In this document: piece by piece, positions 54,726 to 57,700 of the stretch
Layout: each line of letters opens with the position of its first letter
Position numbering within the stretch: position 1 is the first letter of the stretch
NCBI GenBank assembly: GCA_951406725.2
Contig: OX597838.1
Span: 20,460,001 to 20,524,000 of the forward strand
Length of the DNA stretch: 64,000 bases
Origin: Octopus vulgaris
Taxonomy: Eukaryota
Direction of reading: 5' to 3'
Made by a program: the position numbers and the translations under genes
The notes under the pieces: generated by a model
Told to the model about the DNA's origin: nothing
Database searches by the model: none
The model's input: only the letters and a program-made list of their open reading frames with translations

Positions 54726-57700
54726 ATGTTGTCTCTCTGTTGCCTTCTTGTTACGGTTGCTTCAGTTTTTGCTGGTAAGTTGTTGTGTGGACGCCTCCAG
54801 ACGATGAAGTAGGCTAGCCCATTACGTAGATATAGAGGGAGAAATCTAGACATCGGCTGAGGAGTAGAGTTGAGTAGAGGTCATTCGAACGTGCCACATA
54901 ACAGTGGCGACGAGGATGAGATACTGTTATGTCGCACGTTCCGATGACCTCAACTCAGCTCTACTCCTCTGCCGACGTCTAGATTTCTCCCTCTATAGCT
55001 ACGTATTTGGCTAGCCTACTTCATCATCTGGAGGCGTCCACCCAACGTAAGTCGTATCACCCGTTTCAGTGTGCGACATTATCGAACTTTTGAAATCCGA
55101 TATTAACACCGGTTATTTTCACGATTTTAATTTTGATACATGAGTCAGAAAAAGCGACACATAAATTCAATGTCAAAGAAAGGATGAAAAATATTTCTTT
55201 CGCATTTAATTAAAACGCCTAAAAAAACTACAGTCGTACAAATTACAGTGATTGATATATCGTAGACATTGAAGAATGATCAGTCTACAAATATATATTT
55301 ATTTCGTTTTGTGATTCTCTTTCAGCACCAGAAACACAGATCGTCGGTGGATCTGAAGCACAAAACTGCGAGTTTCCTTCCATTGTCCACCTCCAAATAT
55401 TTAACCAACCCACAGATAACATGATTAGTATGTGCGGAGGTACTTTGATTGATGCTACACACGTATTGACAGCAGCCCACTGCCTGTAAGTATATACATT
55501 ACAGATTTACGTTCTCACATCTTTATATTACATCACTTGGTGTTAATGAAGAAAGTTTAATTTCTGTGTTTTATAACATAAATGTTGAAAAGAATTTGAT
55601 GTTGGTGTAAACAGCAACACATATACTAGCTTTAATATCAGGCTAAAATTTGCATAGAATTCTGTTTTCAACAATGTTTGAATATATTAACTTTCACCAT
55701 AAGCAGGTGGGAATATTTAGATAAAAATATATATTTAATTTCCAACTTGAAAATATATTGAGGCGAATGAATACATCACTTCAATCTCTGAACATTCTTC
55801 TATATTTTGTCTGTATTAATTGTTCATTTGACTTCCTGTGTGCTTCATATCGTTCAGACCAACAACACCGATATAAATATACTTTAATAACACACACGAT
55901 CCGAATTGCAACATTGGAATGGACATCAACGTTTAATAATAACAGAGCAATGTAAGAGAGTTCTGTTACAATACTTTAATGAATGGTCAAATATTTTAAT
56001 ATCTAAGAGGACAGTTTCAAGTATATTACGGTATAAAATTACTGTCTGTTAAAGATCTGCCATATTTGATTTGATTTTAGCGAAGGAAATGTCAGAAGGG
56101 TTAAAGTAAATATTGGTTCCAACAACAAATGGAGTGCTGGTTCTCAGTCAACAACTGCAAGTAGAATTCTGAAACATGGTGGATACGTACATACTCCATA
56201 CCTGATTAGTGAGTATTATAATTATCACGTCTTCAGATATTTTCTTCTAAATTCTTTCTTCCTTTCAACCATATATCAGTAAATATTACTATTTCATGAA
56301 TTGCAATGTGGTAACTAAAGTTTGGTCTTTTCACTTCAGTGTTTCTGTAATAAATGTTTAAAAGAAGATGGTTACATGACTTCTTAAAAAACAGAGCCAG
56401 GCTATGGGAGCCAACGGGTTCCTCTCCAAGGGGGCATTAATAATGAGAGTAGCGTCTCAGGGAACTGTCTTGATGGCTGTCTCGGCCATGGTATCAGTTA
56501 TATAAACAACAACAGCTGCTAGCCACGCCGACAACATAAAAGTAACACAAACAGACATGGACACACTCGACGCTAATCTTCCGCAAAAAGACTCAGATGT
56601 TACATAAATGGGCTGAAGAAAAGTGCATGCAATTTAATGTAGGAAAATTCCAAGCCCTCAGCTATCAGTCGGCTTGTGCTAACACGTCACAACAAAAGCA
56701 ATTTGGACATAAAAGATCAGCCAGTCCAGAGTCAAACACAATGTGTGACCTCGATATTGATGTGAGCAACGATGCTTCGTTTCGTGTACGTATCATAAAG
56801 ACGGTGGCAATGTGGAAGCGAATGAGTGGATGGACTCTAAACACTTTCACAACAAAAGACCAGGAACTTATTCTGATCGTTACAGAGTGCATTTGTCCTC
56901 TGCCATCTGGACAACTGCTCTCAACTATAGTAACCCCACAGTGTGAAATTAATGGCTTAACTTCAGGCAGTTCAGCTGTGCTAGGAAGAGTACAACCCTG
57001 AAATGCCAGAGTAAATAAGGGAGACTGGAAGATTCTACTCTCTAGAGCGAAAACAGGAGACATATGCAATGATATACATAGGCACTGCAAGAGCTTGGGA
57101 TGCAATGGCCCTCAGCTATTTAATATCCTGCGAAAAACCCGGAGAGTTCTGTATGTTCTTCTGCAGTACAAGATCTGAGATAAACCCGTATCACGGAAAA
57201 TAACCCAAAAGAGGGCAGCAGAATCGAACTACCACATCCACCAAAAGCTAATCACATGAGAATGGCCAGTGAAAAAAGGGATGCTATTCGGCGGTGCCCA
57301 GTATGACGAAACAAAACTCTTTGAGCAGAAACGCATAAAGTAACAAAATAACGTATGCTCTCTCTCTCTCTCTCTCTCTCTCTCTCTCTCTCTCTCTCTC
57401 TCTCTTTCTTAATATATAAGGTAAAGACCCCTTTCGGTCATAATCAAGAGATAGCAACGAGTAAGTTCCCCTCCAAGGTGTAAGTCCACTCTCCCCTCTC
57501 CATAGCTCCGATGTTGCCCAAGGAACAGGCAAAGGCCGATACAGTTTGGCACCAGTGACGTCACAACCCAGTTCTCTAACCGAGTGGACTGGAGAAAGGT
57601 GGAAAACAACGTTTTGCTCAAAACACAGCCCGCTCCGAGAATCGAGCTCACAACCACTTATACATACATACTTACATACATACATACATGGTCATCAAAT

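Follow-up and report, generated by a model that had tools for sequence, protein, structure and literature searches.

How does a complete long terminal repeat (LTR) come to lie tail to tail with an inverted copy of itself, joined through what looks like the imprint of a tRNA primer? A 64,000-nucleotide stretch of the Octopus vulgaris genome (the window) raises this question with a 267-bp palindrome at 54781-55047, which has the 5-bp motif TAAGT on both sides. We conclude that it belongs to a real and recurrent class of integrated reverse-transcription by-products, here called foldbacks. We put a probability of roughly 0.8 on their being dead-end products of a Gypsy-type element that arose repeatedly and that its integrase inserted by way of two U3 ends. 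The features of the locus are as follows.

54726..54774, + strand: signal-peptide exon of a trypsin-like protease gene (translation; spliced joint in contigs of the paralogous family)
54776..54780, + strand: 5-bp target-site duplication on the left, forming part of the splice donor of intron 1 in the trypsin-like gene; single in seven empty paralogous sites
54781..54903, + strand: left arm, a complete 123-bp LTR (TG...CA) of a probable Gypsy-type family; the same LTR occurs as direct repeats around gag/protease/integrase remnants and after a polypurine tract
54904..54904, + strand: single spacer G separating the LTR from the primer site; the parent has it too
54905..54922, + strand: loop, complementary over 18 nt to the 3' end of mature host tRNA-Ser(GCT) (nucleotides 76-59), with A58 as the next tRNA base (match to the genome's tRNA; parents match only 11 or 13 nt)
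54923..54924, + strand: junction A + C, the C being the reverse complement of the spacer G and the A that of the first primer-site base; most sister copies have CCA + C
54925..55047, - strand: right arm, an inverted copy of the same LTR type, with its terminal base mutated A>G (arm alignment)
55048..55052, + strand: right 5-bp target-site duplication (sequence; empty paralogous sites)
55326..55485, + strand: exon 2 of the trypsin-like gene (Pfam Trypsin, E=1.8e-09)

An initial annotation of this DNA had placed the palindrome, its arms, the spacer, the 18-mer and the A + C junction at these same coordinates, and had counted 13 mismatched positions between the arms, eight of them transversions; positions and counts were the same on re-check. 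It had given the target duplication as 5 bp, or 6 if GTAAGT was counted. Seven paralogous sites from which the element is absent carry the donor motif once, which sets the duplication at 5 bp; what looked like a sixth base is the terminal A>G mutation of the element itself. The palindrome is not an assembly artefact, because the loop is spanned, without a single difference, by contigs from three further runs filed under three organism labels (one of the three could be the source sample). Folded as single-stranded DNA, the element reaches -120.9 kcal/mol against -34.6 +/- 3.9 for 200 shuffles (z = -22). An Rfam search of the element matched no known RNA family (best 19 bits against a gathering cut-off of 70), and a tRNA gene search of the window found none.

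The element sits 6 nt into intron 1 of the trypsin-like gene. The insertion (54775-54780 and 55047-55052) lies in the splice donor, and the mutated terminal base makes a second full donor motif 272 bp downstream. The gene is part of a window-wide tandem cluster of paralogous trypsin-like protease genes (for example at 11045-11343, 14302-14600, 33337-33635 and 51558-51856), which shows large recent direct and inverted duplications. One further locus, L002, is the window element duplicated along with its gene, 14 kb away and 97% identical. A run guessed to be RNA supplied contigs that match the element and splice joints in the gene family, though they are not assignable to the window copy.

The 18-nt loop matches the genome's own tRNA-Ser(GCT) plus CCA at 18/18 positions. 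It is the complement of tRNA nucleotides 76-59, and the next base is A58, by numbering read from the T-arm. The primer had been named as tRNA-Ser(GCU) with a match of 17/18; the identity is borne out by ARAGORN, which calls tRNA-Ser(GCT) at 10/10 loci fetched from pattern matches, and the figure is superseded by the full match. When a tRNA-end pattern allowed either base, 36/36 genome matches carried the window's base, and the 18-mer with the base expected by the initial annotation has one genome match, by eye outside the foldback family's LTR. The CCA is encoded in 0/10 tRNA-Ser(GCT) genes examined.

The LTR of the foldback arm recurs as direct repeats around remnants of a zinc knuckle, an aspartyl protease and an integrase (Pfam zf-CCHC, aspartyl protease and rve), with a polypurine tract adjoining the parent 3' LTR, and the LTR origin first proposed for the arm stands. 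In L048 an RT-like remnant, read by eye, lies downstream of the protease; matches to integrase are located close to the 3' LTR. We infer that the parent was Gypsy-type; no intact parent occurs among 20 integrase loci fetched, out of 151 matches, and all sampled parents are broken. Ten two-LTR elements were compared, of which nine have a 5-bp duplication (4/5 or 5/5 in seven, 3/5 in two). Many parents carry two primer sites, first a 13-nt one and then an 11-nt one, separated by a 56-bp unit whose end is U5-like; the leader follows the second site. In L114 (pol strand, about 3700-6650), a parent element contains 43 or more primer-site units in an array with a 56-bp period.

The full 18-nt tRNA match is found in 0/14 sampled parents whose primer site leads into leader/gag, where pairing spans 11-13 nt. 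The normal Gypsy-type parent with this arm as direct LTRs, predicted by the initial annotation, is supported. Because sampled parents pair over only 11-13 nt, the last 5-7 bases of the loop were likely contributed by the tRNA primer and not by the parent. An unsampled template with an 18-nt site is a possible source of the loop, since a related family carries such a site in the genome (L124), and of the 52 places where the 18-mer matches the genome, 28 are LTR+unit elements of the foldback's own family, nine are foldbacks and 15 are elsewhere (by eye).

Two DNA searches of the species' own genome (2.8 Gb), with the best 40 of about 1,400 candidates scored in each, yielded 19 foldback loci on 11 contigs. 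These represent at least 18 independent insertions, L002 duplicating the window copy with its flanks, and make up roughly 1% of first-look LTR candidates, which are candidates and not copy numbers. A 5-bp duplication borders 16/18 foldbacks (5/5 in 14, 4/5 in two), and the two without one have a disturbed right end or flank. The multiple copies with their own 5-bp duplications anticipated by the initial annotation therefore exist, and its two integrase-type ends are supported. The loop is lost in one foldback and intact in the other 17, and in all 17 the junction falls exactly after primer nucleotide 18, allowing for later substitutions, in agreement with the 18-nt stop already proposed. Between the 18-mer and the C that precedes the inverted LTR stand CCA in 14/17 copies (12 exact, two mutated), CA in one and A in two, including the window copy; the single-A junction first described is genuine but a minority form, and CCA predominates.

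Pattern searches of the genome gave no further complete foldback, and decayed copies may escape them. A loose loop pattern returned 19 matches, eight known foldbacks and 11 others that included one LTR+unit element and no foldback, and five 18-mer matches with other LTRs (L121-L124, L126) likewise held none. Later loop or arm deletions are seen in some foldbacks (L080, L082). In L028 and L080 a related short repeat interrupts the right arm at the same TATA tract. L081 is another type of foldback, in which 62 bp from the start of the LTR come after the LTR and unit in inverted orientation; it has no clear duplication.

We propose that foldbacks would arise in four steps. First, plus-strand strong-stop DNA would copy the LTR, the G and 18 tRNA nucleotides and stop at A58; this product can be read in the element, and the presumed methyl block at A58 is taken from retroviruses, as HIV-1 and HTLV-1 strong-stop synthesis ends 1 nt before m1A58 (excerpts of PMC11251516). 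Second, following the Ty3 recycling model, RNase H would leave 1-3 nt of the primer, and synthesis started anew from the polypurine tract would give a second strong-stop DNA, with T, TG or TGG at its end. In HIV-1, a ribo-A is retained from the primer. Third, reverse transcriptase may jump from the first 3' end onto the plus-sense end of the second strong-stop DNA, adding A, CA or CCA, then C and the inverted LTR, and extension of the acceptor back over the loop would leave a linear palindrome with two U3 ends. Fourth, integrase would insert the palindrome with a 5-bp duplication, the footprint being visible and the enzyme presumed. The product would not retrotranspose again, because it is without a polypurine tract or a direct repeat. 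According to excerpts of PMC5371799, Ty3 makes and displaces a first strong-stop DNA of this kind, and it copies 12 primer nucleotides and not 18, which counts against our model.

The same substrates and integrase could also yield foldbacks by ligation of the plus-strand 3' end to the minus-strand 5' end with its 1-3 tRNA bases, which is a variant of the by-product explanation and not a separate origin. The joined molecule would be either a hairpin later copied round, the model of the initial annotation, or the outcome of end-joining between two LTR-length duplexes each integrated by U3. Ligation predicts the A/CA/CCA series to the nucleotide and needs no microhomology; the CCA junction shows no clear microhomology, a point against the jump. 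Its two-molecule form also fits L119 (minus strand, 348-819), in which an LTR, the 18-mer, CA, C, an inverted unit and four direct units share one 5-bp duplication. The downstream unit whose end adjoins the 18-nt end there does not occur on the donor strand, and a second template molecule would therefore be needed, as deduced from one complex locus.

Ligation nevertheless requires a ligase and extra steps to provide the second processed end, and end-joining leads one to expect ragged junctions, yet 14/17 are identical. It also has to contend with sister products in which the 18-nt 3' end switches template. That end is joined to the internal region in L120 and L125 and to U5 in L047. In L127 (613-1092), a two-LTR mini element, the primer site continues past A58 as a perfect 49-nt complement of mature tRNA-Ser, and after this read-through a switch occurs at a microhomology into the 3' internal region. 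Because these four products show template switching and L119 would need a second molecule, we favour the reverse-transcriptase jump, and within the by-product model we would give it slightly more than half of the weight, the remainder going to self-fold-back or ligation. Ligation itself we hold to be possible but unlikely. Template jump, self-fold-back and ligation would all give the same sequence.

Another explanation is that one or a few palindromes were born once and spread as a MITE, through a DNA transposase (for example Ginger) or through integrase-mediated excision, and the arm mismatches had been taken at first as a sign of a propagating family. The size is MITE-like, the inverted repeats are long and the copies dispersed; CCA junctions are common, nine copies share one LTR type, and the TGTNR pattern of the ends also occurs at Ginger1 ends (excerpts of PMC2836005). 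When the arms were aligned with 40 single LTRs, however, the 18 foldbacks fell into seven LTR types, both arms of each copy being of the same type, and five of the seven types also occur among the single LTRs, as read from the alignment. Arm tests were made on 15 copies, leaving out the duplicate L002 and the interrupted L028, L080 and L082. Minor states common to both arms of a copy number 30, against 7.8 for re-paired arms (0/2000 permutations), or 21 against 8.3 without the window copy. With CpG excluded, variants confined to one arm recur between copies 15 times in same-side arms and 14 times in opposite arms (473/1000 label flips reach 15); with CpG, the counts are 49 and 40 (222/1000). 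One pair, L005 and L019, has two left-arm variants in common.

As both arms share one LTR type across seven types, and one-sided variants show no inheritance, the foldbacks were likely born separately and are not a spreading MITE. Mean arm divergence is 9.6% and homogeneous (p=0.36), within the 4.3-15% of the two-LTR elements (n=10); together with the seven type-matched arms, this points to at least seven origins contemporary with the parent's activity. The 14 copies other than that of the window have transition-rich arm differences (112 transitions, 34 transversions), and the transversion excess of the window copy is unusual (8/13 against 34/146, p=0.006, in one copy out of 15) and does not characterise the family; the propagating family read from its mismatches is not upheld. 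Our model does not explain this excess, which counts against it. Arm differences at 54822 and 54886 of the window are states also present in other family LTRs (L043, L082), and may mean two templates. Spread as a MITE is further opposed by the three junction forms, by a count of only about 18 copies against about 1,400 first-look LTR candidates and, for Ginger1, by its 4-bp CCGG/CCGT duplications (excerpts of PMC2836005), where foldbacks have variable 5-bp ones. We therefore consider such spread improbable for the family as a whole. Limited propagation of a symmetric master may have occurred among the nine copies of the commonest LTR type, because one-sided variants would not betray a master whose two arms were identical.

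The least probable origin is a chromosomal accident after insertion, either a solo LTR duplicated in inverted orientation at a replication fork or two tail-to-tail LTRs, which could draw on the inverted duplications of the window region and the later deletions in L080 and L082, but which is largely refuted by the single 5-bp duplication enclosing both arms in 16/18 copies and by the fixed breakpoint at tRNA nucleotide 18 in 17/17, and which leaves loop bases absent from sampled parents to be explained.

Single-LTR insertions bear on how strong-stop DNAs reach the chromosome. An LTR-only query returned 30 loci: 14 bare LTRs (one being the left arm of a foldback), 13 LTR+unit elements, two parent 3' LTRs and one other. 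Insertions composed of an LTR, a primer site and at least one 56-bp unit ending U5-like, usually with a 5-bp duplication, are abundant (L045, L049, L053, L084-L087, L130-L140, L141-L170); where multi-unit copies have an 18-nt site, the first site carries it in 6/6. In the parents the unit is present solely after the 5' LTR, and the complete parent 3' LTRs examined are without it; therefore, LTR-LTR recombination does not readily give LTR+unit elements. We think it likely that they are annealed strong-stop DNAs, integrated directly as duplexes. The 13/30 insertions that are hard to explain by LTR-LTR recombination matter wherever DNA loss is gauged from solo-LTR ratios.

More generally, strong-stop DNAs may be a widespread and so far unrecognised integration substrate of LTR retrotransposons, with Gypsy particles routinely integrating LTR-sized duplexes in the form of U3-U3 foldbacks, LTR+primer-site minis and some apparent solo LTRs. 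We offer this tentatively and rate it somewhat below even odds. If true, it would provide a one-step route from an LTR to a terminal inverted repeat and to hairpin-RNA loci, and solo-LTR counts would overstate deletion by recombination.

Foldbacks constitute a nucleotide-level fossil record of events that can normally be observed only inside the particles of retroviruses or yeast elements. Recorded in them are the halt of synthesis ahead of tRNA A58, differences in how far the primer was trimmed and, probably, insertion by way of two U3 ends. They make perfect LTR hairpins, which could seed silencing if transcribed. A long terminal inverted repeat, the structure from which Ginger1 is proposed to have started, can be produced from an LTR in one event. 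Repeat annotators would likely call such palindromes MITEs.

Among known non-coding derivatives, solo LTRs and TRIM/SMART elements consist of one LTR, or of two direct LTRs with a primer-binding site and a polypurine tract. On these definitions, foldbacks resemble them in being short and non-coding, with TG...CA ends, a 5-bp duplication and a need for the parent's enzymes, and differ in having inverted LTRs, two U3 ends and no polypurine tract. A TRIM/SMART assignment was rejected, the arms being inverted rather than direct and the loop a primer copy alone, without a polypurine tract. As for MITEs, foldbacks are likewise short and non-coding, with terminal inverted repeats and a duplication; descent from a master is not seen, because there are seven arm types and no side-specific inheritance, an argument that is weaker for the nine commonest-type copies. 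With MITEs and Ginger1 they share long terminal inverted repeats beginning TGT, and those of Ginger1 have been proposed to derive from two opposite LTRs through two incidental insertions around an integrase gene (excerpts of PMC2836005). Foldbacks differ from that proposal in that single events repeatedly give inverted LTRs, with no transposase seen and no sign of remobilisation. The layout was not found described in the sources within reach of our literature search, to which Repbase, Dfam and most subscription journals do not belong, and a prior description is possible; excerpts of PMC12789967, PMC13332604 and PMC3187697 served as general background alone.

The closest likeness is to an aberrant strong-stop product of Ty3 or a retrovirus. 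HIV-1 and HTLV-1 share with foldbacks the stop 1 nt before A58, after exactly 18 nt (excerpts of PMC11251516); in retroviruses the 18-nt end is used for the normal second transfer, whereas in foldbacks it is joined to an inverted LTR. In Ty3, the strong-stop DNA made first includes a primer copy and is then displaced, full-length progeny do not inherit it, and the second ends at U5; excerpts of these Ty3 accounts mention no integrated palindromic product (PMC5371799; PMC7472051). Such recycling fits the parents here, which keep an 11-13 nt site. The differences are that Ty3 copies 12 primer nucleotides, and that the discarded DNA here ends up in chromosomes. As probable derivatives of the Ty3/Gypsy group, foldbacks have a direct-LTR parent with a primer-binding site and a polypurine tract, a primer site matching a host tRNA, TG...CA ends and the parent's 5-bp duplication.
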